Virus record (IMG/VR): IMGVR_UViG_3300021961_000075
Span: 4,519-68,518 of that record
Origin: a virus
DNA length: 64,000 bases
Direction: 5' to 3' (one strand)
Shown: piece after piece, positions 4,374 to 45,235 of the stretch
Layout of the letters: each line of letters opens with the position of its first letter
How positions within the stretch are numbered: the first letter of the stretch is position 1
Program-made: the position numbers and the translations under genes
Notes under the pieces: model-generated
Told to the model about the DNA's origin: nothing
Database searches by the model: none
Seen by the model: only the letters and a program-made list of their open reading frames with translations

Positions 4374-5180
4374 ATGAATAAAATACAAGAAATTTTTAAG
4401 GCTTGGAACATTGCGATGGATCCAACAACAAAACAAGCTGAACTTGCTTCAAAAAGACTAGAAATATGTAATAGTTGTGAGTATAAGGTCACAAACTTAG
4501 GTATCAATAGGTGTTCAGTTTGTGGTTGCGCTTTAAAGGGCAAGGTATTTACCCCAGCTATTGGTGGCTGTCCAAAAGGTAAGTGGGATGATATTGACAA
4601 GCGGGCGCTATATCAAGACAAACCAATGGTGCAAGAGTTTGATAATCAGTTAACTAAAGAAGAGTGCGAAGAATTAATAAATAAAAGCAAAGACAAGTTA
4701 AAGCAAGCTGGCGTTCTTGGTGAGCACAGAGAAAATTACAGGACAGCACAACAGACTTGGATTTTCGATAATGATCCTTTAAGTTTAAAAATAAAAAGTA
4801 TAATTCTTAATAAAACAAATTTACCGCACGAAAACCAAGAAGCACTTCACGTAGTCAAGTACGAAGTTGGTGGAGAATACAAACCTCATCATGATTTTTT
4901 TCATCCAAATACAGATTACTACGAAAGCACAACTAAAATTGGTGGACAACGCAAGTACTCTTGTTTGTTTTACTTAAATGATAATTTTAAAGGTGGTGAA
5001 ACATATTTTCCAAAAAAAGACTTAAAAATACAACCGCATTTAGGAAAACTATTAATGTGGGATAATTTAAATAAAGACGGCTCTCCAAATCAAGATAGCC
5101 TTCATGCTGGACTACCAGTTGAAGATGGTGAAAAATGGATTTGTATAGTCTGGGTTAGAGAAAAAAGTTTAAAGACTTAA
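4374..5180 (+). CDS. Prolyl 4-hydroxylase-type 2OG-Fe(II) dioxygenase with an N-terminal Cys-rich putative Zn domain
   Basis: YKPHHDFF (HxD), LFYLND..GGETYFP and LHAGLPVEDGEKW (distal His and Lys) match the P4Hc pattern. N-terminus has ICNSC..CSVCGC..CPKGKW. Confidence 0.85.
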   Translation: MNKIQEIFKAWNIAMDPTTKQAELASKRLEICNSCEYKVTNLGINRCSVCGCALKGKVFTPAIGGCPKGKWDDIDKRALYQDKPMVQEFDNQLTKEECEELINKSKDKLKQAGVLGEHRENYRTAQQTWIFDNDPLSLKIKSIILNKTNLPHENQEALHVVKYEVGGEYKPHHDFFHPNTDYYESTTKIGGQRKYSCLFYLNDNFKGGETYFPKKDLKIQPHLGKLLMWDNLNKDGSPNQDSLHAGLPVEDGEKWICIVWVREKSLKT

Positions 5181-31065: not shown

Positions 31066-34000
31066 ATGCCAGAGATTAAAAATACTTTCCTTGCTGGAAA
31101 GATGAATAAAAGTCTTGATGACCGATTACTGCCAGAGGGCGAGTATCGAGATGCATTAAACATACAGGTTACAAAATCTGAAGGCGCCGATGTTGGTGTT
31201 ATTCAAAATATAAAAGGAAACCAAAAAGTTAGTGGTGATGTTACTTTAGATGATAGTGCTAAAGTAATTGGCAGCTGCTTTGATGATCAAAATAACGTAA
31301 TATATTATTTTGTACATCAAAATGTTGGTGTTTCAAGCAAAATAATTAAATACGATAAAAAAGCAAATCCTCCTGTAGCTTCTGAAATTATTTCTTCAGA
31401 CGTTTTAGCTTTTGACAGAGACTCTTTTGTGCAAGCTAATGTTGTAGAAAACTATTTGTTTTTTACAGATGGCGTAAATGAACCTAGAAAAATAGATACT
31501 ACCATTAGCTATGATTCTAGCTCTATTGAAGAATACAACCTAACAGTTGCCAAACCAGCACCTCAACACGCCCCAACAGTATCAATTCAAACAACTGATC
31601 CTAACGCTGGTAATTATATTGAAGAAAAATTTGTAAGATTTGCATATCGTTACAAGTTTTCAGATAACACTTATTCTGTTTATTCTCCATTTTCAAATAT
31701 TGTTTTTGGTCTAGACACTGATGTTTTAACAGAGGATCAAATTAAGGATGCTTATTCTAAAGGTGAGCTTGATTTTTTAACTAATAAAGCCAAAACAATA
31801 AGTATTCAAGCAAAAAGTCCAGGAGGCGCGATAGGATTTTTTCCTACATCTTACGGCATTGTCCAGGTTGATATATTAATGAAATCTTCTGATTCTCCAG
31901 CTGTGATGCTTTTAGATAGCGTGCAAGTTGATGAATTTGGAGCTGTTCCTGCTTTTATTTATAATTCTGAAAAACCAAAAATAACACTTCCAGAAAATCA
32001 ACTTATAAGGGTTTATGATGAAGTACCTAAAACAGCTATTGCTCAAGAAATAGTTGGTAATAGAGTTGTTTATGGTAATTTCACGCAAGGTTTTGATATT
32101 AATACACGTGAAAGACTTCCTTTCGTTGTAAAAACAGAGCCAAAGAATATAAATTATCTAGGCGTTAAATCAAATAGAACATACGAGGTTGGTATTATTT
32201 TTTCCGACGATTACGGAAGAACATCTCCCGTAATGTTTGGGCAAAATAAATCAATAACTTTAGATAAAATAGTAGAAGATAATTACAATTTACAACTCGC
32301 TTTAGAGTTTAATAGTAATATTGATTATATAAAAAATAAAGGATTTAAATACTACAGTGTTGTTGTAAAACAAGCTGAACAAGAATATTATAACGTATAC
32401 ACTCCTGGATTCGCGCATATAAATGGTAGAACTTATTTTTCAATATTTGGAGACAACATAAATAAAATACCAATTGACACGTCTACTTATAATTCAGAAA
32501 CAAATATAAATTCTACAAAAACTAAAGTATCTATATCTTTAGTAAATAAATCGTTCTTTAACAAAACTACAACGTCTTCTTCAGATCCAATTAAAAAAAC
32601 CGCAATAGACTACGACTTTGCAAATAATAATCAAGTTGGAGGCCAAGATGTGGTTGTTGGCAATTTCACAAATATAGTTGGTTACGCAACGGTATCTCAT
32701 ATATATAATGAAACTGAAAATCTTGTTACTCCGTTTCCAGACGGCACAACAAGTAAGTTTGTAATAAACAACGGCGTAATACCAGACGCTGATCAACCAA
32801 ACATTGCTGGCGATGGTACACCAACCGGCGGAACGTTTTCTGTTGGTTTTACTGCTAATGATTGCACTGGCGTGGTTGTTTTTGTTGATGGAGTTGAGCA
32901 ATCATCTTCGCAGTTTGATTTTGATCCAACAGACGTATCTATAACTTTTGCACCGTCAAGCATACCAAGCACTGGTCAAACTATAGTAGTATTTTTTCAA
33001 TACGATAATCTTGTAATTCCGGCAGACACAAGTAGATCAGCGGTGTCATTAACTGAGATTTCTGGCACGGCGGCTATAACTGTTGTAGGTGAAATAGATA
33101 TAAACGTTACAGACGACACGTACGCAACTAGTTCGACGTCTACAGATATTCAATTGGCATCCCCTGTTTATGGAAATCTTGAACCAGTAAAAATAACAGG
33201 TATAGGAAATATAGACAATTTTTCCGTTATAAATAATGACATATTAGATGCAAGCACTGATTTGTTTGGTATATACAAAAAAGAAAATAAATATTTATTA
33301 GGAGAAATAGATGGAGAGTACGGTGTTCAGCTTTATAGCACCCAACCCTCTTTGTCCATGAAATATACGGATTTAGGAATTCTTGAAACAAAAGGTTTTG
33401 AATCTGTTATAGATATTTATTACGAGACCGCCACGCAGGGTTTAATTAATGAATTAGAAAACGCTACTAATGAAAATAAATTTGTTGTACGTGTAAATTA
33501 TTTTAATTGTATAAATTTAAAAACTCCATCAAGAAATTCAGAACCTAGTGTTATTTGGCAAGAATCAAGAATCAAAGGCGGATTTAACGAAACAAGCATG
33601 GACTATGGTGTTCAAGCGTACTTGACTAATGAAGATTATGGACTTATTAATAGAAAATCAAGTTTAATTTATTCTGGCGTATTAAATAATAATACCAAAG
33701 TAAACAACACCAATCAATTTCCATCTGGAGACGCAATAACAAGAACATTAGACCCAACACATGGATCCATACAAAAACTTTATGCTGACACAGATAACTT
33801 ACTTATCTTTCAAGAAGAAAAAGTTTCTAAAGCGCTAATTGATAAAGATATTATATACACGGCAGAAGGTCAAGGCTTAACAACAAAGGGTGAAAATGTG
33901 ATAACGCTTGAAAGAAGTTTTGCAACAAATTATGGCATAGGTAAAGATCCTCAAAGCTTTGCTGTTTATGCTGGTAGAAAATACTTTGTTGATAGGCCGA

Positions 34001-34716
34001 AAGGAGCTGTTTTAAGGCTTTCTGGTGATGGTATTACAGAAATATCTAATTATGGCATGCGTAGTTATTTTAGAGAAGAACTAAGCAATCCTACAATAAA
34101 TAAAGTTATAGGTAGTTGGGATATTTACAACAAGGAATATATATTAACTATTGATTCAGACTCTAGCGTTACTTTAGGTTTTGATGAATCAAACAATGGT
34201 TGGGTTTCAAGATATAGTTATATACAAGAAAACGGAGGTAGTATAGATGGTAATTTTTATACTTTCAACAAAGGTCATTTGTACAAGCACAACGCGACAG
34301 AAAGTTATAACACTTTTTATGGAGTAACAGCCGCCGCTTCGACGATAGAACTTATATTTAACCAAAATGCCTCTGTAAACAAAAACTTCTATACTATTAA
34401 TTATGAAGGAACAAATACATGGGATATAAGTACTATAGAAACAGATACTCAAGATACTGGTTTAGAGATAAAAAGTAATATTAACGCTGTTGCTGACACA
34501 GATACTATTATTAATTTGTCTGCTTTTAAAAAATACGATGAAAAGTATTTTGCAAACATAATAAATAGCAGTCCAGTTAAATCAAACGAGGTTGTTTTTG
34601 GTAAAGATATATCTGGTGTTAAGGGTCATTTTATGAAAGTAACGCTTAATAATGAAGAACCAGGATACCAAGAGTTATTTTCTATATCAACAAACTATAA
34701 TGTAAATAGTTATTAA
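31066..34716 (+). CDS. Tail nozzle/muzzle (DNA stabilisation-type) protein
   Basis: 1216 aa; GKMNKSLDDRLLPEGEYRDALNI start, LFFTDGVNEPRKI, GSIQKL, GWVSRYSY. Confidence 0.8.
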   Translation: MPEIKNTFLAGKMNKSLDDRLLPEGEYRDALNIQVTKSEGADVGVIQNIKGNQKVSGDVTLDDSAKVIGSCFDDQNNVIYYFVHQNVGVSSKIIKYDKKANPPVASEIISSDVLAFDRDSFVQANVVENYLFFTDGVNEPRKIDTTISYDSSSIEEYNLTVAKPAPQHAPTVSIQTTDPNAGNYIEEKFVRFAYRYKFSDNTYSVYSPFSNIVFGLDTDVLTEDQIKDAYSKGELDFLTNKAKTISIQAKSPGGAIGFFPTSYGIVQVDILMKSSDSPAVMLLDSVQVDEFGAVPAFIYNSEKPKITLPENQLIRVYDEVPKTAIAQEIVGNRVVYGNFTQGFDINTRERLPFVVKTEPKNINYLGVKSNRTYEVGIIFSDDYGRTSPVMFGQNKSITLDKIVEDNYNLQLALEFNSNIDYIKNKGFKYYSVVVKQAEQEYYNVYTPGFAHINGRTYFSIFGDNINKIPIDTSTYNSETNINSTKTKVSISLVNKSFFNKTTTSSSDPIKKTAIDYDFANNNQVGGQDVVVGNFTNIVGYATVSHIYNETENLVTPFPDGTTSKFVINNGVIPDADQPNIAGDGTPTGGTFSVGFTANDCTGVVVFVDGVEQSSSQFDFDPTDVSITFAPSSIPSTGQTIVVFFQYDNLVIPADTSRSAVSLTEISGTAAITVVGEIDINVTDDTYATSSTSTDIQLASPVYGNLEPVKITGIGNIDNFSVINNDILDASTDLFGIYKKENKYLLGEIDGEYGVQLYSTQPSLSMKYTDLGILETKGFESVIDIYYETATQGLINELENATNENKFVVRVNYFNCINLKTPSRNSEPSVIWQESRIKGGFNETSMDYGVQAYLTNEDYGLINRKSSLIYSGVLNNNTKVNNTNQFPSGDAITRTLDPTHGSIQKLYADTDNLLIFQEEKVSKALIDKDIIYTAEGQGLTTKGENVITLERSFATNYGIGKDPQSFAVYAGRKYFVDRPKGAVLRLSGDGITEISNYGMRSYFREELSNPTINKVIGSWDIYNKEYILTIDSDSSVTLGFDESNNGWVSRYSYIQENGGSIDGNFYTFNKGHLYKHNATESYNTFYGVTAAASTIELIFNQNASVNKNFYTINYEGTNTWDISTIETDTQDTGLEIKSNINAVADTDTIINLSAFKKYDEKYFANIINSSPVKSNEVVFGKDISGVKGHFMKVTLNNEEPGYQELFSISTNYNVNSY

Positions 34717-35608: not shown

Positions 35609-36843
35609 TGAGCTATAGAAATCCAACAATGATACAGCCCGCTGATCCGTTAGCGTTTAGTAAGGGTTTTGAACAAGCTTTTTCTCAACAACAAAATGCG
35701 TTTCAAGCAGAATTAGAAAAAAGAGAAAGATTAGCAAAAGAACAAGATGATGCGCTTGCCGCCGCGTACAGTATGGCAGATATGAGCCCAATATACGGGT
35801 TTGATACAGCTGTAAGTGAAGGTGCAATAAACATGTTTAACGACTATATAGATTCTAATGATTTTGCTACAGCTGACGCCTCTAAAAGAGCTAAAATACT
35901 ACAAGATATAAAGTTAGCTAAAGCTAATTTCGCGAAGTTAGGAGAAATAATGGCTGTTGATAATAGTGAGTGGGATTTAAGAAATGATCCAAAATTAACC
36001 GCACTCAGAACGGCGATATTAAAAGGTGAAAAACCTCAAATAAAAACAAAAGGTTTAGATTTTGAATTATCAGGAAGTTGGGGCAATATAAATTTAAAAG
36101 ATTTAGGTAGCACTAGAGTATTTAACAAAGCTGCTTATCAAGAAGATTTAGATGCAAAAAATGACAGTTATTTTAAGGAATATCAGCAGGCTTATGAAGC
36201 GGCCTATAGGTCAGGTAAAACAGATTCTGAATTAGCAGAACTAAGAAAAGTATATAAAGATCGCTATATGGGTATGTTTTCTAAGTATTTAGAATCAAAC
36301 GAAGATCTATCACAATATGTTAAGTTTAATGTAGGAAAAAGCTTTGATATAAATGAATCTATAAGTAATATGTTTGATTCTGTGGAAACAAATATTATTG
36401 ATCCAGGATTAATACTTAATAGACCTGTTAAAGAGGTAAAAGAGCAAAAGTTACCTACCGGATTAACAAAAGAACAATCTTCAACAGCTCTAAGCAATAT
36501 ACTTAACATTGATGAATCAACTAGAGATGAAAATAATATTATAACAAGTACAAGTCCTTTTTATGAATTAAGAATTAAAGGTCCAAATGATGTTGTTCCT
36601 ATGAATTATAGATTTAGAAAGATAGAAGGAAAATACTTTTTTCAAAAACCAGGTATGGGTACGCCGGATGAAATAACCGAAGAAGAATTATACAATTTGC
36701 TTGGTCATTCAAACGAGTATAAGCAGATGATCCAAGGAAAACAGCGTCTTGAAACACAGATAGGACTACAAACAGGCAATTTTGCTATTAGTGAAAACTT
36801 TGGAAAGCAAAGACCTGTTAAAACTTTTGATGGATCTAATTAA
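35608..36843 (+). CDS. Probable ejected (cargo) protein 2
   Basis: 411 aa, helical, MSYRNP start; lies between cargo genes. Confidence 0.6.
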   Translation: MSYRNPTMIQPADPLAFSKGFEQAFSQQQNAFQAELEKRERLAKEQDDALAAAYSMADMSPIYGFDTAVSEGAINMFNDYIDSNDFATADASKRAKILQDIKLAKANFAKLGEIMAVDNSEWDLRNDPKLTALRTAILKGEKPQIKTKGLDFELSGSWGNINLKDLGSTRVFNKAAYQEDLDAKNDSYFKEYQQAYEAAYRSGKTDSELAELRKVYKDRYMGMFSKYLESNEDLSQYVKFNVGKSFDINESISNMFDSVETNIIDPGLILNRPVKEVKEQKLPTGLTKEQSSTALSNILNIDESTRDENNIITSTSPFYELRIKGPNDVVPMNYRFRKIEGKYFFQKPGMGTPDEITEEELYNLLGHSNEYKQMIQGKQRLETQIGLQTGNFAISENFGKQRPVKTFDGSN

Positions 36844-36853
36844 ATAAAAACTC

Positions 36854-39800
36854 ATGTTAGAATATACCGTTAACGGCGAGCTTTATAATGTTCCCGAAGA
36901 TTTAGAAAATAAATTCTTAGAAAAATATCCCAACGCTGTCAAGGTAGAAACTAGTCAGCCGGGAAAGATACCACCGCAGGTTCCGGGTGCGCCTGTGGAG
37001 ACAACTGCAGCACCCGATATGGCTTCCAAATCGGAAGATACTTCATTGGAGTTACAAGAAATAAATAACGAAGAAAAAAGAAAACTTCCTTTTCTTGTAA
37101 GAAACGAATTATCAACAAGTGGTTTACCTTTTACAAGAGAAAATGTAGATTCTGCTTTAGCTAAACATAAAGCTAGAACAGAACGACCTATATCCGAAGC
37201 TATCAAAGAAGACGTTGACAAAGCTAAAAAAGATATTAATATTGCCAAGCAAAGCTTTTCTAACATCGTAAGTAATTTTTATAATGAAGATTTAGTAGAA
37301 GACGATCCTTTTGTAGCAGCTTTATCTTCTAACATGCCAATGTTACAGGGCCAAGCTAGGTTTTTTACGTCTCCAAGATTAAAAAGATTTTATACTAGTA
37401 TATCTTACGGAACCTTAGAAATGTTGGATAACTTAGGATTTGACTTAGACAAATCAAAAGCAGAAGTATCCAAAGAATTTTTAGAAGCTGAAAAAAGAAC
37501 AAAGCAAGTTGTGGGTTTGACAGATGTAAAAGGCCCAGCAACTCTTTTAGCTGCTATAACTGGCGCGGGTTCAGAAGTTGGGTTTTCTATAGCAACAGGC
37601 TTGGCAAGTGGAGGATATTTACCAATGGCTGAAATGATAGGTGGTATGGTAACTAACTATAATGTAGAGAAAGCCAAGTCTAAATATAAAGACTTATCTG
37701 AAGAAGATGCTGTAGAGCAATTAATAAAAGATAAAGACACTGATTTTTGGTTACCCACTACATTAGCTGTTCCTGCGGCATTAGCTGAAAGATATGCTTT
37801 AAAAGGAACAACCAAATTTTTAACTAAGAATATAGCTTCTTCTGGCAAAAAAGAAATAGCAAAAAGTATTTTAATAAACTCTAATAAAGAAGGTGGAACA
37901 GAGTGGATTCAAGGAGCTTTAGAAACAGCTACATCATCTCTTGGTGCTAACTATGATCTAGAAATTGAAAGTGTAATAAACGGCGTTTCTGTGCCAACTA
38001 AGGTATTAAAATCTGCTCAAGATGCATTTGATTTTGCTTTTAGCAAGCAAGGTTTAGAAACTTATTTGCAAGGTCTTGTTGGTACTGGAGTTATATCATC
38101 TAGTAAAGCCGCTATTGACAAACTTGGTCCTGATGCTTATAGAGCATTAGCAACCACTAGATATGTTATGGACGAGGGTAAAGTTGAAAAACTTACTGAC
38201 GAAATAGCTGATCTTATAGAAAAAAAGAACACTGCTACTAATCCAGAAATGATTAAAATTTTTGAAGAGCAGATACAACAAAAAGAGCAAGAATTAAAAG
38301 GTCAGGTTATTAATCAAGCTGGTTTTTTTGATGCTTTTGAAGAAGAAGATTACGACGAAATAAAAGATGCGAGTAAACTGTCTAGAGCACATGTTGAAAA
38401 AGTAAATGAACTTAGACAAGATTTAAATGACGGCATTATAGATGAGTCAGAATATAATGAACTCTATAATAATTATAAAGACAAATACAAGCAAGCTTTA
38501 AATAGAATAAAAAACGTAGTAGACAAAGCAAAAGAAAATATATCTCAAAAGAATATAGATATATCAAATAAAAACGAAGAGTTATTCGGTATAATAACAA
38601 ACCCAGAATCAAAGCCATCTCAAATAGATAGAGCAAGAAATGAAATTGCTTTAAATAACATGGGGCTTGTAAATAACCTTATTAATAGCAAATTTAATCC
38701 AGCCACCGCAGAAGCCTCTGGTTTTACCAGAGACATGTTTGAAAGTGCTGTTTATGAAGAATATTCTAAGCTAATAAATACCTATAATCCAGAAAGCGGC
38801 GTTCCATTTGGTGCATATTTAAAACAAAACTTACCAAAAAGACTTCCAAGGATATTTGAACAAGGTACAGAAAAGGCTGCTGATGGAGGTTTTGTATTTA
38901 AAGAAGACGTTTCTGAAAGAAGAGATATAATGGCAGAAGAGTCAGATATAGAAGTTGTTAAGCAAGAAGCTTCTAAATCTATGACCAAAGATCTTTCTAT
39001 GCCAGCTGATTTAGTTTCTGAAATAGAAACTGGCGTTGCAAGTGTATTAGCCACAAAGCTTCCGCCTGTATCAGATCCAAAGTTTGTAAAAGAATTATCT
39101 GAAGCTTTTAAAAACAAGTTTACAGAAATAGTAAAAGAACAATTTGGTAAAAAGAAAGAAGAATTTAGGCAATATCTTATAGATAATTTTGACACCTTGT
39201 TTGATCAAATACCTCAAGAGGCTTTTAATAAAAGACTTCCTGGAATGTTTGAGGCTGTTACAGATGAAACTGGTAGACAAGTTAGAGAAAGAACCGCTGT
39301 AGGTAAGGGTGTTTTTAAGAAAGCACAAATGACGCCTGAGCAGTTTGCCGATTATTTTACAGGCGAAGACGTTTATGCTTCATTAGCTTCTAATAGAAAA
39401 GTTAAGCTTGCTGAAATTGTTGCTCAAGAACTTGGCAAAGACGCTACAGCTAAAGTTATTTTAAATCCAGAAGTAGCAACAAGATTTAGACAAACTCAAG
39501 AATTATTAGGGCAAGAAGTTCCTGGAGGATTTGAAAGATCTATAGCGTTGGCTATTAAGAGACTAGATCAATTATCTGAAAATTTAGAAAAATTTAGAGA
39601 AGGAAAATTATTTAGTGGTCCTCTTGGTATGGCCACTTTTATTGTAGAGGTTTTTGCTAAAACACTGTCAAAACTGCTAAAAAGAGGCATGGGCTTTAAT
39701 AAAGCAGTAGACGCAGCAGCGCAAAAAACAGTTAACGATCTTGGTATTGAATCTTTATTTGACAAAATAACTAGTGTTTTTAAAAGTATATTTAAAAAAC

Positions 39801-42800
39801 CAGAGGATGCTACCGAAGAAAACGCTGAAAAAGCAGTAAACGCTGTAACAGATGTTCTTGATAAAGCATTAAAAGAAAAACTACCTGTAATTGTTTCTAA
39901 TTTTAATAAAAGTTTAGAAAACCTTAGCGTAGAACAAAAAATAGAAAAATTAAAAATATTCTACGACAACGTTATAAAGCCATTAAAAGAAACGACTACT
40001 AAAAGTATAGTTGATTTTACTGATGCAGATGCAACGTTAAATTGGATGCTTGAAAATATACCTAATATAAAAGATAAAAATATACAATATAAGACAGAAG
40101 GTTCTGGTAGTGGTAAGTCAATCGTCTACATTACTAATAATATAAGTAAAAAATTAAGCACCTCTCCTCTTGGGCCAAAAACTAGAGATACTATAAATAA
40201 AAAAGGCAGCGCTAAAAATATCTTAGATTACTTGTATTCTAAAACAGCGGCTAGAGATATAGGTGTTGAATTAAAAAATAAAAGCAACATACAAGTAATA
40301 AGTGATAGAACAGATAAAAACATAAACTCTTTAACGGTTTTTATTACAGATATGATTGAATCTGGCCGAATAGATGAGTTATTATTAATTCTTAGACTTC
40401 AAAAAGAATCATCAATTTCTCCTTTAAGACTTTCCGCTAGATTAAAATATATACAATCAGATTTTGATTCATCTTTAGAAGACAAAAGTACTGAATCTAT
40501 AAAACAAGGAACAGGATGGACATATGAGCATGTGACAACAACGGAGACTACGTATCAAGCGCTTAAAGAAGAAATACTGGCTGGTAGAACAGAAAAAATT
40601 AGAGAAATACTTGAAAAAGGCGTGGCTGCTTATATTTCTACTAAAATAGCAAATCAAAAAATAAACAAAACAGATTACAAGCAATCTAATGGCCCTAATT
40701 TTAATATACTTACAGATGATCCACTAGAAAGACTAACTAGATTTGATATCAAAGTTGAGCCTATAGAAAACAAAATAAAAATCAAAGATCCTGTATCAAA
40801 TAAAGAAACAACGGTTTCAGACGCAAGATCACTTCGCCCACAACAAATGATTGAAGCAAAAACTGGTGGGCAAATAAAAGCCACACAAGTTATTACTAAA
40901 TCTGAAGCTAAAGCACTAGAAAGAACAAGAAAGAAGTTTTTCAGGGGTATTATTTCTCCTGGCGCAGATGACGCGCATGGACTTGTTCAAGATTTCTATA
41001 GAAAAGGAAAATTAGGAGAAGAAGATCACACTTGGTTTAAAGAAAATTTCTTTGATCTGTTTGACGACGCTTCTATAGCAATGAATAAAAACACGATTGC
41101 TAAACAACGTCATTACGAAAACATAAGAAAAAAGCACAAGCAAACTTTCAAAACCTTAAAAGAAAAAGTCATGGGTCCATTTGATAATGACATGATTTTA
41201 AGGGTATACTTGTATACTAAAGCTGGTGTGACTGCTGAGCAGTTAGGATTATCTCAAAGTCAAGTTAACGACATGATGATGTATGTTAATGACAATACTG
41301 ATCTTCTTGATTTAGCCAATGACTTAAGACAGTTAAATAGTGGCGAAGAATTTTGGATTGTACCTGAAGACCCTAAAAACTTTACAGCTGGTAGACTAGC
41401 TAACGATATAAGTGAAATATTAAACAAGAAAGATAGACAAAGATTTTTCGAAAAGTTTAATGAAGCTAAAGACGCTATATTCAGTGATGATTTCATGAAT
41501 AAAGTAGAGGCTGTTTATGGTAAAGAATTTAGAAACGCGCTGGGCGATGCTCTGTACAGAATGGAAACTGGTAGAAGCAGAAGTTCTGGCGTTGATCCAC
41601 AAGTTGGCGCGCTATGGAACTGGTTTAGAGGTTCTGTCGGTGTTACGATGTTCTTCCATACTAGATCTGCAATACTACAAACTATATCGTTTTCAAACTA
41701 TATAGATTTAGAAAACAACAATCTTATAGCCGCATCGAAAGCTTTTGCAGATCAACGTCAATTCTGGGAAGACTTTATGTTCTTAATGAAAAGTGAGTAT
41801 TTAGCCCAAAGAAGAGGTGGTCTTTCTACAGAAATAAACATGCAAGATTTAGCCGATGATTTAAACGCAGGTGGAGCAGTCGGTACAAGATCTATAATAT
41901 CTAAGCTTTTACAAGTTGGTTTTTCATTTACCCAGGCTGGTGATGCATTTGCTATATCTTTTGGCGGTGCTTCTTATTATAGAAATCAAGTTAACGCCTA
42001 CTTAAAACAAGGTCTTACAGAAGAACAAGCTCAAGAAAAAGCATTTAGAGATTTTGTTAGAAAAACAGAAGAATCTCAACAATCTTCAAGACCAGACAGG
42101 CTGTCTAAGCAGCAAGTAAGTATGTTTGGAAAGTTATTTTTAGCTTTTCAAAACATAACAGGTCAAATGACGCGTATACAGACAAAAGAAATAAAAGACG
42201 TTCTAGCTGGTAGAGGGAATAAATATCAAAAATTATCTAGGGTTGCTTATTATTTCACTATGCAGAACATAATGTTCTCTGTGTTACAAAATGCAATATT
42301 TGCGTTTATGTTCCCTGACGATGAGGAAGAAGAAGAATTATTAAAAACTAAAACTCAACGAGTAATTAATAACTCTTTAGACACTATATTAAGAGGTACG
42401 GGTGTTTATGGCGCCGTAGTTGCTATGGTTAAAAATGCAACTATGGAATTTATAGAGCAAGAGCGTAGAAGCTCTGAAGGCAAGGGTAGAGCCGATCATA
42501 TGTATACTATGATAGAAATAGCCAATGTTTCTGCACCAATAGGAATTAAAGCTAGAAAAATAGGTGCAATGATAGACTCTTATAGATACAACAAAGGTGT
42601 TCATGAAAGAATGGGTGCAGATATTGATAATCCAGCACTAGACATTATAGCCAATGGAGTTTCTGTAGGTGCCAACATTCCAGCTGATAGGATTTTAAAT
42701 AAAATAAGAAATATAAAAGCAGCTCATGACGAGCAAACAGAGACTCTTCATAAAATATTATTATTAGCTGGTTGGAATACGTGGGACTTAGGAGTCAGTG

Positions 42801-42919
42801 GTCAAAGAGAAAAAGCAGCTGAAGTAAAAAAACAAATAAGATCAGAAAAGTCTAAAACTAAAAAAGCTAAAAAATTAGAAGGTTTGTCTGAAAAAGAAAA
42901 GCTAAGCATAGGTTTTTAA
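36854..42919 (+). CDS. Giant multidomain internal virion/cargo protein (2021 aa)
   Basis: Size, helical composition, position, C-terminal hydrophobic helices; sigma-70 region-2-like segment at about 38630-38850; no RNAP DxDxD catalytic motif recognised. Confidence 0.7.
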   Translation: MLEYTVNGELYNVPEDLENKFLEKYPNAVKVETSQPGKIPPQVPGAPVETTAAPDMASKSEDTSLELQEINNEEKRKLPFLVRNELSTSGLPFTRENVDSALAKHKARTERPISEAIKEDVDKAKKDINIAKQSFSNIVSNFYNEDLVEDDPFVAALSSNMPMLQGQARFFTSPRLKRFYTSISYGTLEMLDNLGFDLDKSKAEVSKEFLEAEKRTKQVVGLTDVKGPATLLAAITGAGSEVGFSIATGLASGGYLPMAEMIGGMVTNYNVEKAKSKYKDLSEEDAVEQLIKDKDTDFWLPTTLAVPAALAERYALKGTTKFLTKNIASSGKKEIAKSILINSNKEGGTEWIQGALETATSSLGANYDLEIESVINGVSVPTKVLKSAQDAFDFAFSKQGLETYLQGLVGTGVISSSKAAIDKLGPDAYRALATTRYVMDEGKVEKLTDEIADLIEKKNTATNPEMIKIFEEQIQQKEQELKGQVINQAGFFDAFEEEDYDEIKDASKLSRAHVEKVNELRQDLNDGIIDESEYNELYNNYKDKYKQALNRIKNVVDKAKENISQKNIDISNKNEELFGIITNPESKPSQIDRARNEIALNNMGLVNNLINSKFNPATAEASGFTRDMFESAVYEEYSKLINTYNPESGVPFGAYLKQNLPKRLPRIFEQGTEKAADGGFVFKEDVSERRDIMAEESDIEVVKQEASKSMTKDLSMPADLVSEIETGVASVLATKLPPVSDPKFVKELSEAFKNKFTEIVKEQFGKKKEEFRQYLIDNFDTLFDQIPQEAFNKRLPGMFEAVTDETGRQVRERTAVGKGVFKKAQMTPEQFADYFTGEDVYASLASNRKVKLAEIVAQELGKDATAKVILNPEVATRFRQTQELLGQEVPGGFERSIALAIKRLDQLSENLEKFREGKLFSGPLGMATFIVEVFAKTLSKLLKRGMGFNKAVDAAAQKTVNDLGIESLFDKITSVFKSIFKKPEDATEENAEKAVNAVTDVLDKALKEKLPVIVSNFNKSLENLSVEQKIEKLKIFYDNVIKPLKETTTKSIVDFTDADATLNWMLENIPNIKDKNIQYKTEGSGSGKSIVYITNNISKKLSTSPLGPKTRDTINKKGSAKNILDYLYSKTAARDIGVELKNKSNIQVISDRTDKNINSLTVFITDMIESGRIDELLLILRLQKESSISPLRLSARLKYIQSDFDSSLEDKSTESIKQGTGWTYEHVTTTETTYQALKEEILAGRTEKIREILEKGVAAYISTKIANQKINKTDYKQSNGPNFNILTDDPLERLTRFDIKVEPIENKIKIKDPVSNKETTVSDARSLRPQQMIEAKTGGQIKATQVITKSEAKALERTRKKFFRGIISPGADDAHGLVQDFYRKGKLGEEDHTWFKENFFDLFDDASIAMNKNTIAKQRHYENIRKKHKQTFKTLKEKVMGPFDNDMILRVYLYTKAGVTAEQLGLSQSQVNDMMMYVNDNTDLLDLANDLRQLNSGEEFWIVPEDPKNFTAGRLANDISEILNKKDRQRFFEKFNEAKDAIFSDDFMNKVEAVYGKEFRNALGDALYRMETGRSRSSGVDPQVGALWNWFRGSVGVTMFFHTRSAILQTISFSNYIDLENNNLIAASKAFADQRQFWEDFMFLMKSEYLAQRRGGLSTEINMQDLADDLNAGGAVGTRSIISKLLQVGFSFTQAGDAFAISFGGASYYRNQVNAYLKQGLTEEQAQEKAFRDFVRKTEESQQSSRPDRLSKQQVSMFGKLFLAFQNITGQMTRIQTKEIKDVLAGRGNKYQKLSRVAYYFTMQNIMFSVLQNAIFAFMFPDDEEEEELLKTKTQRVINNSLDTILRGTGVYGAVVAMVKNATMEFIEQERRSSEGKGRADHMYTMIEIANVSAPIGIKARKIGAMIDSYRYNKGVHERMGADIDNPALDIIANGVSVGANIPADRILNKIRNIKAAHDEQTETLHKILLLAGWNTWDLGVSGQREKAAEVKKQIRSEKSKTKKAKKLEGLSEKEKLSIGF
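36961..37016 (+). promoter_or_regulatory. Predicted -1 ribosomal frameshift signal (slippery heptamer plus H-type pseudoknot)
   Basis: In-phase G_GGA_AAG at 36961-67; 6-nt spacer; stem 1 ccgcagg(36974-80)/cctgtgg(36992-98); stem 2 cgggtgc(36984-90)/gcacccg(37010-16). Confidence 0.7.
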
Positions 42920-43093: not shown

Positions 43094-43523
43094 TTTATTA
43101 TTAAGTCTTTGTGTTTATTCCCAAGAAATAACCATTGGCAAGATTAGCAATAAAATAGTACATGGAGATTTAATTGGAAATAGAAACCTGGAATTTGGTA
43201 TTAAGAGCATATTAGAAGAGCTCGTACAGGATCAAGGTTATGATCTAGTTGAAAATAGTGAATCGATCCTAGAGGTCGATTTATTATATTTTGACGTTAA
43301 AAGAACCAGTACCAACGCGGCTGTTTTCACAAAAACGAACAACCAAGTTGAGATAATAGCTGAAGGTCGGTTCAATGGCAAGAAAGTAAAAGTAAAAGCT
43401 ACAGCCGACAATATTATTACGTCTACAATCATATTAAATAATCAAGGAACGTTCAATCAGCAGAGCGTTTCAACAGCTTTAAAAAGATTATGTAATCAGA
43501 TTATAGACAAACTAAAACTATGA
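43068..43523 (+). CDS. Secreted protein, possible CsgG/LptE-like alpha/beta fold
   Basis: Signal peptide ..VYS|Q; helix-strands-C-terminal helix (STALKRLCNQIIDKL). Confidence 0.55.
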   Translation: MKWLISVSSLLLSLCVYSQEITIGKISNKIVHGDLIGNRNLEFGIKSILEELVQDQGYDLVENSESILEVDLLYFDVKRTSTNAAVFTKTNNQVEIIAEGRFNGKKVKVKATADNIITSTIILNNQGTFNQQSVSTALKRLCNQIIDKLKL

Positions 43524-45235
43524 AAAAACTATTGTTTCTACTTTTGTTCCCAGTATTAACATTTGGACAAAGTTTTAACCTAAAACATGAAATACTAGAA
43601 CAAGGACCATTTGTAGTAGGAGACACAATAACAATAAAATACCAATTAATAGATAACACTAACTCCGTCACAGCAAGGCTACTTCAGTTTGATATAGGAT
43701 GGGATTTAGATAAACTAACTAGATTAGGAACACCTAACTGGCAACTTACAACCCCAGACAATAAGAGTTTTACTCATAATTATTGGTCTGGATATACATA
43801 TGTTAGCGCGCCTGGTTATGATTGGAGTGAACTAACTCAACAGCATGAAAATGGATGGACATATACTGGAGGAGGAAATGAAGGCGTAGCTAGATTTACA
43901 ATCCAAAGTGTAGACGATATTGGTCCTGAATTATTTTTACAGCAGTTTACTATAAAAGATATCACTGGTACTAACGCTACAGACTACACTGACGCTGTTA
44001 GATTTAACTGGGCGTATCTTATAGATTCAAATAACGTTAATACTTATGACGTGTTTCCAGATCCATCAAGAGAATTGGATCTTAATGCTAGCAACTCTAC
44101 CCCAGCTGGCACAGTAACGTTTCAGTTACAAACTCCAAACGCAGAAAACATATCAGATTACATGATTGTTATTGAAACCTTAGAGCAATACCAATCAATG
44201 CAAGAAGGCACTCAACAATCATATAGTTATATTCAAGGTAATTTCAATGCTTCTGCCCAGTTTATAACAACAGAACTAAAACAAGATACACCTTATATAG
44301 TAAATGTTTTTATAGCTGGTACGTATAATCAAGAAAATCAAACAAACGTATATCCTCAATGGCTAGATGATGTTGTAACTGTTTCTGATGTAATGCAGAC
44401 ATTTAAGCAAGCTATAGGCACTGAGCCAGATGGTACAGGAAATGTTTTTCAATACAACATACAAAAACGCCTAGCAAACGTAGATCAGCAAGGTCCTAAC
44501 GATCCTGTAGATTTTAAAGACAGTTATGCTTTACTAGCGCACATAGCTGGCGTATTAGATAATGCTGCGGATCAAAACAACAGTGAGGCTCAGGAATTTT
44601 ATCCTATAACTTCGTTTGCAAACGGGTCAATGAACACATCTGGTTTCTTTGACACATTTGGTACACCTATAAATTCAGAAGAAGAATGGTTAGCATCTAG
44701 AACGTTTACCTTAGAAAATGATCAACCTATCACATTTAATTTTGCACATGGATTAATGGGTGATGCAGATCTTTCTCATTCGACAACGCCAAATTTAAAT
44801 GCAGACACTGAAATATCAGCTTTAACTAAATCAAGAAGGATGCCAAATATACTTATGGCTGCACCACAAGAAACAATTGATTTAGATATTGTATCAGAAC
44901 TTGTAAACGGCGAGGTAGTACTAGAAATAAACTTAACAAAAGAAGATTTGGCTGGCATGCAATTTAACATAAGCTATGACAAGTCTATTCTAATGTTTAA
45001 AGATATAATTTTTGACACTGGAAATACTATGACAAATTTTGCCAAACACTTTGACGACGGCAGAATAAATCTTGGTACAATAAATATAAAAGAGGAAAAC
45101 GTTAAAACAGGCAAACCATTCAAACTCGTGTTTGTTCCGAAAGTATCAATTCAAAACACAGCTGGTCTTGTAACATTTAAAGTTACTGACGCTGTAAAAC
45201 ACAATGGAACAAAAGTAAACCTAAACATACAATAA
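43520..45235 (+). CDS. Secreted protein with cohesin-like and dockerin-like segments
   Basis: Signal ..TFG|Q; VGDTITIK..LQFDIGWD..L and LAGMQFNISYDKSIL cohesin-like strands; VTVSD, VDFKDSYALLAHIAG and MGDADLS dockerin/EF-like motifs. Confidence 0.6.
   Translation: MKKLLFLLLFPVLTFGQSFNLKHEILEQGPFVVGDTITIKYQLIDNTNSVTARLLQFDIGWDLDKLTRLGTPNWQLTTPDNKSFTHNYWSGYTYVSAPGYDWSELTQQHENGWTYTGGGNEGVARFTIQSVDDIGPELFLQQFTIKDITGTNATDYTDAVRFNWAYLIDSNNVNTYDVFPDPSRELDLNASNSTPAGTVTFQLQTPNAENISDYMIVIETLEQYQSMQEGTQQSYSYIQGNFNASAQFITTELKQDTPYIVNVFIAGTYNQENQTNVYPQWLDDVVTVSDVMQTFKQAIGTEPDGTGNVFQYNIQKRLANVDQQGPNDPVDFKDSYALLAHIAGVLDNAADQNNSEAQEFYPITSFANGSMNTSGFFDTFGTPINSEEEWLASRTFTLENDQPITFNFAHGLMGDADLSHSTTPNLNADTEISALTKSRRMPNILMAAPQETIDLDIVSELVNGEVVLEINLTKEDLAGMQFNISYDKSILMFKDIIFDTGNTMTNFAKHFDDGRINLGTINIKEENVKTGKPFKLVFVPKVSIQNTAGLVTFKVTDAVKHNGTKVNLNIQ

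Follow-up and report, generated by a model that had tools for sequence, protein, structure and literature searches.

A candidate programmed −1 ribosomal frameshift cassette near the start of a giant gene in uncultured marine phages

To our knowledge, the frameshifts described in phages lie almost all in tail-chaperone genes or at the ends of capsid genes, where they lengthen the product. The slip site of lambda gpG/gpGT is G_GGA_AAG, and in the IS3/IS911 transposases (OrfA/OrfAB) a bacterial −1 frameshift occurs at an A_AAG-type site with stimulation by a 3' structure. Here we analyze a 64,000-nucleotide (nt) stretch of viral DNA, referred to below as the window (positions 4,519 to 68,518 of IMG/VR record IMGVR_UViG_3300021961_000075, the whole record being 68,518 bases long), in which the same heptamer as in lambda stands in phase near the start of a gene for a protein of 2021 amino acids (aa), the giant gene, and is followed by a pseudoknot and an open −1 frame. 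Together these elements very probably allow programmed −1 ribosomal frameshifting at codons 37-38 of the giant gene, in a cassette that is family-wide: slip site, phase, pseudoknot and −1 open reading frame (ORF) are present and conserved in about 100 distinct cassettes of uncultured marine phages.

How does such a cassette compare with the systems already described? It belongs to none of the gene families of lambda gpG/gpGT, dnaX or the alphavirus and flavivirus transframe proteins. IS3/IS911 frameshifting fuses two ORFs into a longer enzyme, whereas the shift here would truncate, and the genes are unrelated. Like lambda gpG/gpGT, the cassette would give two proteins with a shared N-terminal part in a ratio set by translation (PMC5009743, which also mentions the IS911 structure). 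The lambda shift, however, occurs close to the 3' end of its small gene and gives a longer product, whereas the one here lies at codon 38 of 2021 and would shorten the product to about 71 aa. Nor is the giant gene a tail chaperone placed before a tape-measure gene, since it follows a gene similar to those of crAss muzzle proteins and two small ORFs, and, unlike lambda, the cassette contains a covarying H-type pseudoknot. In dnaX (tau/gamma) the frameshift product is likewise the short form with a shared N-terminus (PMC5009743), and the A-site codon is again A_AAG. Unlike dnaX, the cassette encodes a conserved −1 tail of 29-52 codons and lies very near the 5' end of its gene, and no DnaX homology of the giant protein was found (no Pfam family at E <= 1e-3 and no PDB sequence match). 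The alphavirus 6K/TF and the flavivirus and cardiovirus transframe proteins resemble it in that a −1 shift into a short overlapping ORF gives a small protein with a conserved transframe C-terminus, the remainder being abandoned (PMC5009743); those are eukaryotic RNA viruses with polyproteins, whereas this is a double-stranded DNA phage of bacteria, and there is no sequence relationship. No published description of a frameshift in this giant gene was found in the literature on phage and crAss-like frameshifting, Pervagoviridae and PRFect, although supplementary frameshift lists, which lay outside the search, could include such genes.

The ORF list and translation of the window place the giant gene at 36854-42919 on the + strand. 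Its codons 36-38 read CCG GGA AAG, which puts GGGAAAG in phase as G_GGA_AAG, and the arms of the two stems that follow interleave, with the 5' arm of stem 2 inside the span of stem 1, the geometry of an H-type pseudoknot. The guanine-plus-cytosine (GC) content rises to 55% in 36950-37049 from 34% and 27% in the adjoining 100-nt segments. The features are as follows.

36854..42919, + strand: zero-frame giant gene, 2021 aa, two genes downstream of the crAss-muzzle-like gene
36854..36967, + strand: codons 1-38, the N-terminal module with which both the giant protein and the predicted short product begin
36961..36967, + strand: slippery heptamer G_GGA_AAG, in phase with the giant gene
36968..36973, + strand: spacer of 6 nt (6 or 7 nt across 54 related sites, 4-7 nt in other subtypes)
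36974-36980 with 36992-36998 (span 36974..36998), + strand: pseudoknot stem 1, 7 base pairs (bp), one of them G.U
36984-36990 with 37010-37016 (span 36984..37016), + strand: pseudoknot stem 2, 7 bp, all Watson-Crick
36981-36983 (loop 1, 3 nt), 1 nt (loop 2) and 36999-37009 (loop 3, 11 nt), + strand: pseudoknot loops
36961..37068, + strand: −1 frame ORF, 35 codons from the heptamer, stop TAA at 37066-37068
37018..37059, + strand: tail motif of the −1 peptide (Y-G-x3-G-x2-F-x-G and flanks), predicted with low confidence to form a beta-hairpin

An earlier, sequence-only reading of the window had described the in-phase heptamer, the spacer, the two 7-bp stems, the GC-rich patch and the −1 stop, and all of these, with their coordinates, were confirmed. 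Translated from 36961, the −1 frame gives GKDTTAGSGCACGDNCSTRYGFQIGRYFIGVTRNK before the TAA at 37066-37068, so that the predicted transframe product has 38 + 33 = 71 aa.

The case for a frameshift is a comparative one, and relatives were gathered in several ways. The giant protein has 59 database relatives at E <= 1e-3. A full-length alignment search returned 575 relatives in IMG/VR, the best 80 of which were taken as loci L002-L081; this sample was chosen by C-terminal similarity only, through C-terminal motifs. An alignment search with the N-terminal 120 aa gave 17 viral and 57 metagenomic loci. A peptide motif of the 0 frame matched 55 distinct sites, which became 54, including the window, when a false match (L029) was dropped. 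Because these 54 sites were gathered through 0-frame peptides, their ratio of nonsynonymous to synonymous differences (pN/pS) is not biased towards the −1 frame. All loci pooled yield 105 distinct cassettes.

A slip-prone A-site tetramer is kept at the same codon in all 54 sites. The heptamer there is canonical and in phase in 28 (27 GGGAAAG, 1 GGGAAAT), reads G_GAU_UUU, likewise in phase, in 22, and keeps only the A_AAG part in the other 4. Position 1 of the heptamer is G in 52/54 sites, with a preceding codon that may encode any of seven amino acids (P, Q, A, E, V, L or S); outside the cassette, G-ending codons account for 9.2% of 31,335 codons in the same ORFs, and CCG for 6.7% of Pro codons. 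Conservation starts exactly at heptamer position 1, the preceding nine columns being variable. By these comparisons, the in-phase slip site and its 5' G appear to be under selection. In the literature, G_GGA_AAG is rated highly shift-prone in E. coli (PMC5009743), and experiments on pea enation mosaic virus (PEMV) RNA2 place its −1 shift at G_GAU_UUU, where re-pairing is full in the A site and partial in the P site (PMC4737148). The exact PEMV heptamer thus stands at the GGGAAAG position in the 22 sites, although in PEMV it works on eukaryotic ribosomes and with other stimulators (PMC4737148), and its use by bacterial ribosomes is putative here. Among the 105 distinct cassettes, GGGAAAG occurs in 55, GGATTTT in about 20 and GGAAAAG in 6, the remainder having AAAAAAG, GGGAAAC/T and others; 8 have no candidate heptamer under the rules used.

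The −1 frame downstream carries the marks of protein coding. It is open for 33-42 codons in 54/54 sites. Upstream of the heptamer a stop closes it within 1-22 codons in 54/54, and between that stop and the heptamer no ATG, GTG or TTG occurs in the −1 frame in any of them. Substitutions were counted as pooled Nei-Gojobori estimates in the 12 codons that follow the pseudoknot (37018-37053). Of the three sense frames of this post-knot block, the −1 frame has the lowest pN/pS, 0.346, against 1.377 for the 0 frame and 2.03 for the +1 frame; the three antisense frames give 0.55, 1.63 and 1.96. The +1 frame was considered as a coding frame and rejected. The block has 12 invariant columns, all at −1 codon positions 1 or 2 (0/12 third positions are invariant), and the mean entropies of −1 codon positions 1, 2 and 3 are 0.72, 0.38 and 1.07 bits. 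The most variable codon position of the 0 frame in the block is the second. Judged by its substitutions and its lack of a start codon, the −1 frame appears to be a coding frame that can be entered only by a shift. The N-termini of the relatives also show a strikingly conserved 0-frame stretch over the cassette ('PGA.VE.TAAPD'), and this apparent motif appears to be mostly the shadow of overlapping constraints. A wider estimate (pN/pS 0.36 from 95 motif blocks) is biased, as its blocks were found through the −1 motif itself, and we do not rely on it.

The pseudoknot is conserved as a structure. In a MAFFT alignment of 26 distinct rows, standard pairs fill 95.9% of the 364 pair cells scored (94.5% in stem 1, 97.3% in stem 2), a share that falls to 30-55% if the partner is displaced by 1-3 columns, and none of 500 column shuffles matches the observed pairing or covariation score. 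Doubly changed cells number 13, compared with 2.9 in column shuffles, and again none of the 500 reaches 13. A single stem-1 pair is AU in 9, GC in 9, GU in 4 and UA in 3 among these rows. The changes in stem 1 connect 0-frame codons four to five apart (T..V, S..D, Q/G..P) and have no obvious protein explanation. The pairing count is conservative, because 9 of the 15 unpaired cells (pair 8-19), produced by a 1-nt gap that MAFFT placed in the 5' arm of stem 1, belong to rows that pair fully in their own register, shifted by one base. Other subtypes have H-type knots of different sequence, including a different stem 2, at 4-7 nt after the heptamer. Since ViennaRNA cannot fold pseudoknots, knots were scored with an ad hoc stem enumerator, with shuffled and random-site controls: 26/35 representative cassettes, hand-picked from the 105, score at least 20, as do 5.7% of 1050 dinucleotide shuffles and 2.0% of 1050 random in-gene sites. 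In 2/35 (L028 and L036) the enumerator found no knot.

Three marks of a programmed −1 frameshift are thus found together at this locus: an in-phase heptamer or proven variant, a covarying structure 6 nt downstream, and a start-less −1 ORF under purifying selection. The sequence-only reading had named the checks that would bear on its proposal, and their outcomes agree with it. The slip site stays at the same codon in the homologues, stem 1 shows compensatory changes, and the −1 peptide has the substitution pattern of a translated frame. The hidden 71-aa transframe product that it predicted, with the N-terminus of the giant protein, is supported by a −1 frame open in every site with no start of its own and a pN/pS of 0.35, and its view of the 0 frame here as a linker fits a pN/pS of about 1.4 downstream of the knot. 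Its suggestions on function, that the shift could set stoichiometry or that the short form could be a virion or membrane-active peptide, are speculative.

The peptide at the end of the −1 frame extends well beyond the sites collected through the 0 frame. In L002-L081, the −1 frame of 34/59 loci with a complete N-terminus contains [YFW]G-x3-G-x2-[FWY]-x-G at 48-85 codons from the start of the giant ORF, mostly 9-37 codons after GGGAAAG, AAAAAAG or GGGAAAC/T. The pattern is specific, with 36 matches in 2.48 million six-frame residues of the 80 loci, all at the place of the cassette. Across the 105 cassettes the transframe part measures 29-52 codons, with a median of 37. The −1 peptide has a CxC-containing stretch and then its tail, (R/K)YG-x3-G-x2-FxG; many other subtypes have a quite different 0-frame sequence and no Cys and keep the tail consensus, (R/K)YG(I/F/L)x(I/F/L)G(R/K)(W/Y)F(F/I)G(I/F)T(R/K). 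AlphaFold2 (AF2) run on the tail alignment predicts a beta-hairpin at low confidence (predicted local distance difference test, pLDDT, 53.5), and a complex prediction with four tail copies scores 0.28 against a mark of 0.42. A profile search of 1.84 billion proteins found the tail in no unrelated protein family, and an ESM Atlas search with P0063, a small ORF that bears the tail, gave no usable match.

The part of the giant protein that precedes the slip site is 33-50 codons long in 53/54 relatives and 88 in L142. Among L002-L155 these N-terminal modules (for example L016:2715, L006:7992 and 36854-36960 of the window) are of several unrelated types, such as MLEYTVNG..., MFEYEG..., MNELE.IVQRM... 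and G.YTKSFEEF repeats, each with the same cassette and tail. Unrelated modules in front of an unchanged cassette and tail suggest that lineages have exchanged this N-terminal part among themselves.

The same profile search, made with 86 tails, also returned 25 small ORFs (P0061-P0085, 58-127 aa) in which a giant-type N-terminus is fused in frame to the tail. Could these be a gene family in its own right? We rejected this candidate: 10/10 fused ORFs checked are singletons. One of them looks like a deletion variant lacking slip site and knot, its 88% identical relative L156 (L156:3995-4260) having the ordinary two-frame arrangement; the 90% identical relative of another, L162 (L162:3990-4260), contains many frame breaks and indels, pointing to an indel-ridden assembly. 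The fused ORFs show what the short product would likely look like and are not independent evidence for it.

In the window itself, 36700-37200 is found identical and without any indel in contigs of four public DNA runs, two of which may derive from the source sample. Short contigs in two of the four (X1 and X4) match the cassette only, over 36957-36999 and 36994-37036, with 4 differences in 43 nt and unrelated flanks. Because these contigs match the cassette alone, other phages in the same samples appear to carry the same conserved element. No public RNA run containing the window sequence is listed.

Based on these comparisons, we infer that ribosomes shift at the heptamer at some frequency. 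Most would read through to make the 2021-aa protein. A fraction would pause at the H-type pseudoknot that starts 6 nt after G_GGA_AAG and slip back one base, GGA re-pairing on GGG and AAG on AAA; having shifted, these ribosomes would translate a further 33 codons of the −1 frame before terminating at 37066-37068. The short product of about 71 aa would thereby begin like the giant protein, with its 38-residue N-terminal module, and end in a conserved tail of its own. By analogy with the known two-product systems, both products may share a binding partner through their common N-terminal module, setting a fixed ratio of short to long, and the tail may give the short form a role of its own. We further speculate, as a tentative and on balance doubtful extension, that this is a two-product system for the giant internal proteins of short-tailed marine phages, in which an exchangeable N-terminal docking tag of 35-50 residues would receive from the ribosome, at a fixed rate, either the giant body or the conserved beta-hairpin tail. 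On this view the giant protein would have the short product as its stoichiometric partner, whether chaperone, plug or a subunit packaged along with it, and podophages would have in it a counterpart of gpG/gpGT with reversed polarity; the switch between G_GGA_AAG and G_GAU_UUU might also be a first hint that bacterial ribosomes use a plant-virus-type GGAUUUU site.

The window sequence alone does not lift the cassette beyond chance; across relatives it is far beyond chance. In the 18,525 codons of the window's 50 ORFs, in-phase X_XXY_YYZ heptamers number 116; GGGAAAG accounts for just 2, and a −1 ORF of at least 33 codons follows in only 2 of the 116. Open runs of the −1 frame in the giant gene average 7 codons, and 3/252 reach at least 35. 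An Rfam search of 36700-37300 gave four matches, all far below the gathering scores, and assigned the region to no family. The giant gene even has a second in-phase heptamer, G_GGT_TTG at 37513-37519, with a 39-codon open −1 frame, which we examined as a frameshift site and rejected. The closest relative with DNA (L101) has GTC GGG CTC there and a 3-codon −1 frame; because the site is not conserved in L101, we take it as probably due to chance, and it serves as an internal negative control.

Several observations weigh against a programmed frameshift. The nested minimum free energy of 36961-37030 is unremarkable (z = −0.68, with 46/200 shuffles folding as well). Stem 2, which has five invariant pairs and one pair that is UA in 20 rows and UG in 6, is near-invariant and shows no compensatory double change; it fits the model and is uninformative about it. 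The canonical heptamer is missing from 22/54 sites, where G_GAU_UUU, proven in a eukaryotic system only, takes its place. Inside the knot pN/pS is near 1 in all three frames, and because of this the Cys residues of the −1 peptide could be a by-product of the GC-rich stems. In the second sample 25/59 complete relatives lack the tail motif. The cassette is absent from gp101 of Cellulophaga phage phi38:1, the nearest cultured type by the muzzle-like gene, and there are no cultured relatives with the cassette. Sequence counts also overstate the number of independent events, the sites being phylogenetically related.

Could the frameshift be real and the peptide of no consequence? Ribosomes might shift merely to lower synthesis of the giant protein, as a sink, the short peptide having no function of its own. 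Cardiovirus 2B* is an analogue of such a ribosome-sink frameshift, and a shift at codon 38 would indeed lose each shifted ribosome to the giant ORF (cardiovirus transframe products are mentioned in PMC5009743). A sink needs just a nearby stop, however, whereas the cassette has a tail of 29-52 codons with invariant Y/G/G/F/G and the low −1 pN/pS already given, making this explanation unlikely. A different possibility is that the RNA structure alone is functional, whether by pausing translation, by regulating mRNA stability or by giving the N-terminal module a pause in which to fold, and that the −1 frame is a by-product from which no short protein is made. The covariation supports the structure itself, and the knot region is near-invariant in nucleotides with no frame standing out in pN/pS. 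Yet conservation runs about 40 nt past the knot with a codon pattern specific to the −1 frame, the tail is kept as a peptide in subtypes with other knot sequences, slip site phase and the 5' G appear selected, and the −1 frame is open throughout all 54 sites in a gene where such runs average 7 codons. We consider an RNA-only role very unlikely.

Expression of the −1 ORF by another route, namely internal initiation at a non-standard start, transcriptional slippage or DNA indel variants, strikes us as less probable again. The 25 fused small ORFs do show that fused alleles exist in assemblies, but all ten that were checked stand alone, and the relatives of two of them point to a two-frame layout in one case and to indel-ridden sequence in the other, as described above; the contigs of the four runs have no indel at the site, the −1 frame offers no ATG, GTG or TTG upstream of the slip site, and the A or T runs, at 3-4 bases, are short for transcriptional slippage. 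The least probable of the alternatives is that a conserved antisense gene over the cassette causes the conservation. The window does have a minus-strand ORF at 36955-37266 (103 aa) that starts with ATG, one antisense frame is open across the cassette in 50/54 sites, and this frame, which shares its wobble positions with the −1 frame, has a pN/pS of 0.55, a further count against the frameshift interpretation. It is nevertheless interrupted by stops in 4/54 cassettes and 4/42 distinct post-knot blocks, its pN/pS lies above that of the −1 sense frame, and the neighboring genes examined in the window are all on the + strand. An antisense gene would also leave the in-phase heptamer, the selected 5' G and the spacing of the knot on the sense strand unexplained. 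We read the antisense ORF as a by-product of the GC-rich, dual-coding patch.

A frameshift that comes as early as codon 38 in about 2000 and shortens the product would be unusual. The cassette is kept in roughly 60% of an uncultured marine phage family with at least 575 IMG/VR members, and its comparative record is unusually clear, with two alternative slip sites, several knot sequences and a peptide conserved in an overlapping frame. Should the frameshift prove real, a conserved small protein is being overlooked by gene callers in hundreds of phage genomes, the conserved 0-frame 'motif' of the giant proteins is explained as the shadow of an overlap, and the cassette offers a compact natural system in which to study −1 frameshifting, including that at G_GAU_UUU, on bacterial ribosomes such as those of Bacteroidota.

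As for the giant protein itself, it has a single weak match in PHROG, and nothing was found by tblastn against 50,697 GenBank phage records, by blastn of 36600-38600 against GenBank phages or by a single-protein scan of viral contigs. Its conserved part, the C-terminal 672 aa, gives an all-alpha AF2 model of moderate confidence (pLDDT 64), with nothing at E <= 0.001 in a Foldseek search of the PDB. The gene lies in a virion block beside the muzzle gene, as expected of an internal 'cargo' protein of crAss-like or Pervagoviridae-like phages. The crAss-muzzle-like protein (31066-34716), separated from the giant gene by two small ORFs, matches PF25731 and PF25729 and also the 'virion structural protein' gp097 of phi38:1 and its relatives, which infect marine Flavobacteriia. 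At the equivalent position, downstream of gp097, phi38:1 has the giant 'structural protein' gp101, to which the giant protein shows no profile similarity (hhalign probability 3%). No similarity of sequence or fold to any virion-proven or ejected protein was found in these searches, and we infer a virion-internal role from gene position alone. The muzzle-like protein is closest, at 26-34% identity, to structural proteins of Cellulophaga, Maribacter, Tenacibaculum and Flavobacterium podophages (Pervagoviridae and allies); because of this similarity to podophages of such bacteria, the host is probably a marine member of the Flavobacteriia.

No tRNA genes were found in the window. Some relatives of the giant protein, of 1800-3300 aa (P0025-P0027, P0043 and P0048), have precomputed Zeta-toxin/AAA_33 kinase-like domains (PF06414, PF13671), which the window protein does not. 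Downstream of the giant gene, the 571-aa protein encoded at 43520-45235 gives a borderline match to Cohesin (PF00963), with 24.4 bits against a cut-off of 24.1.

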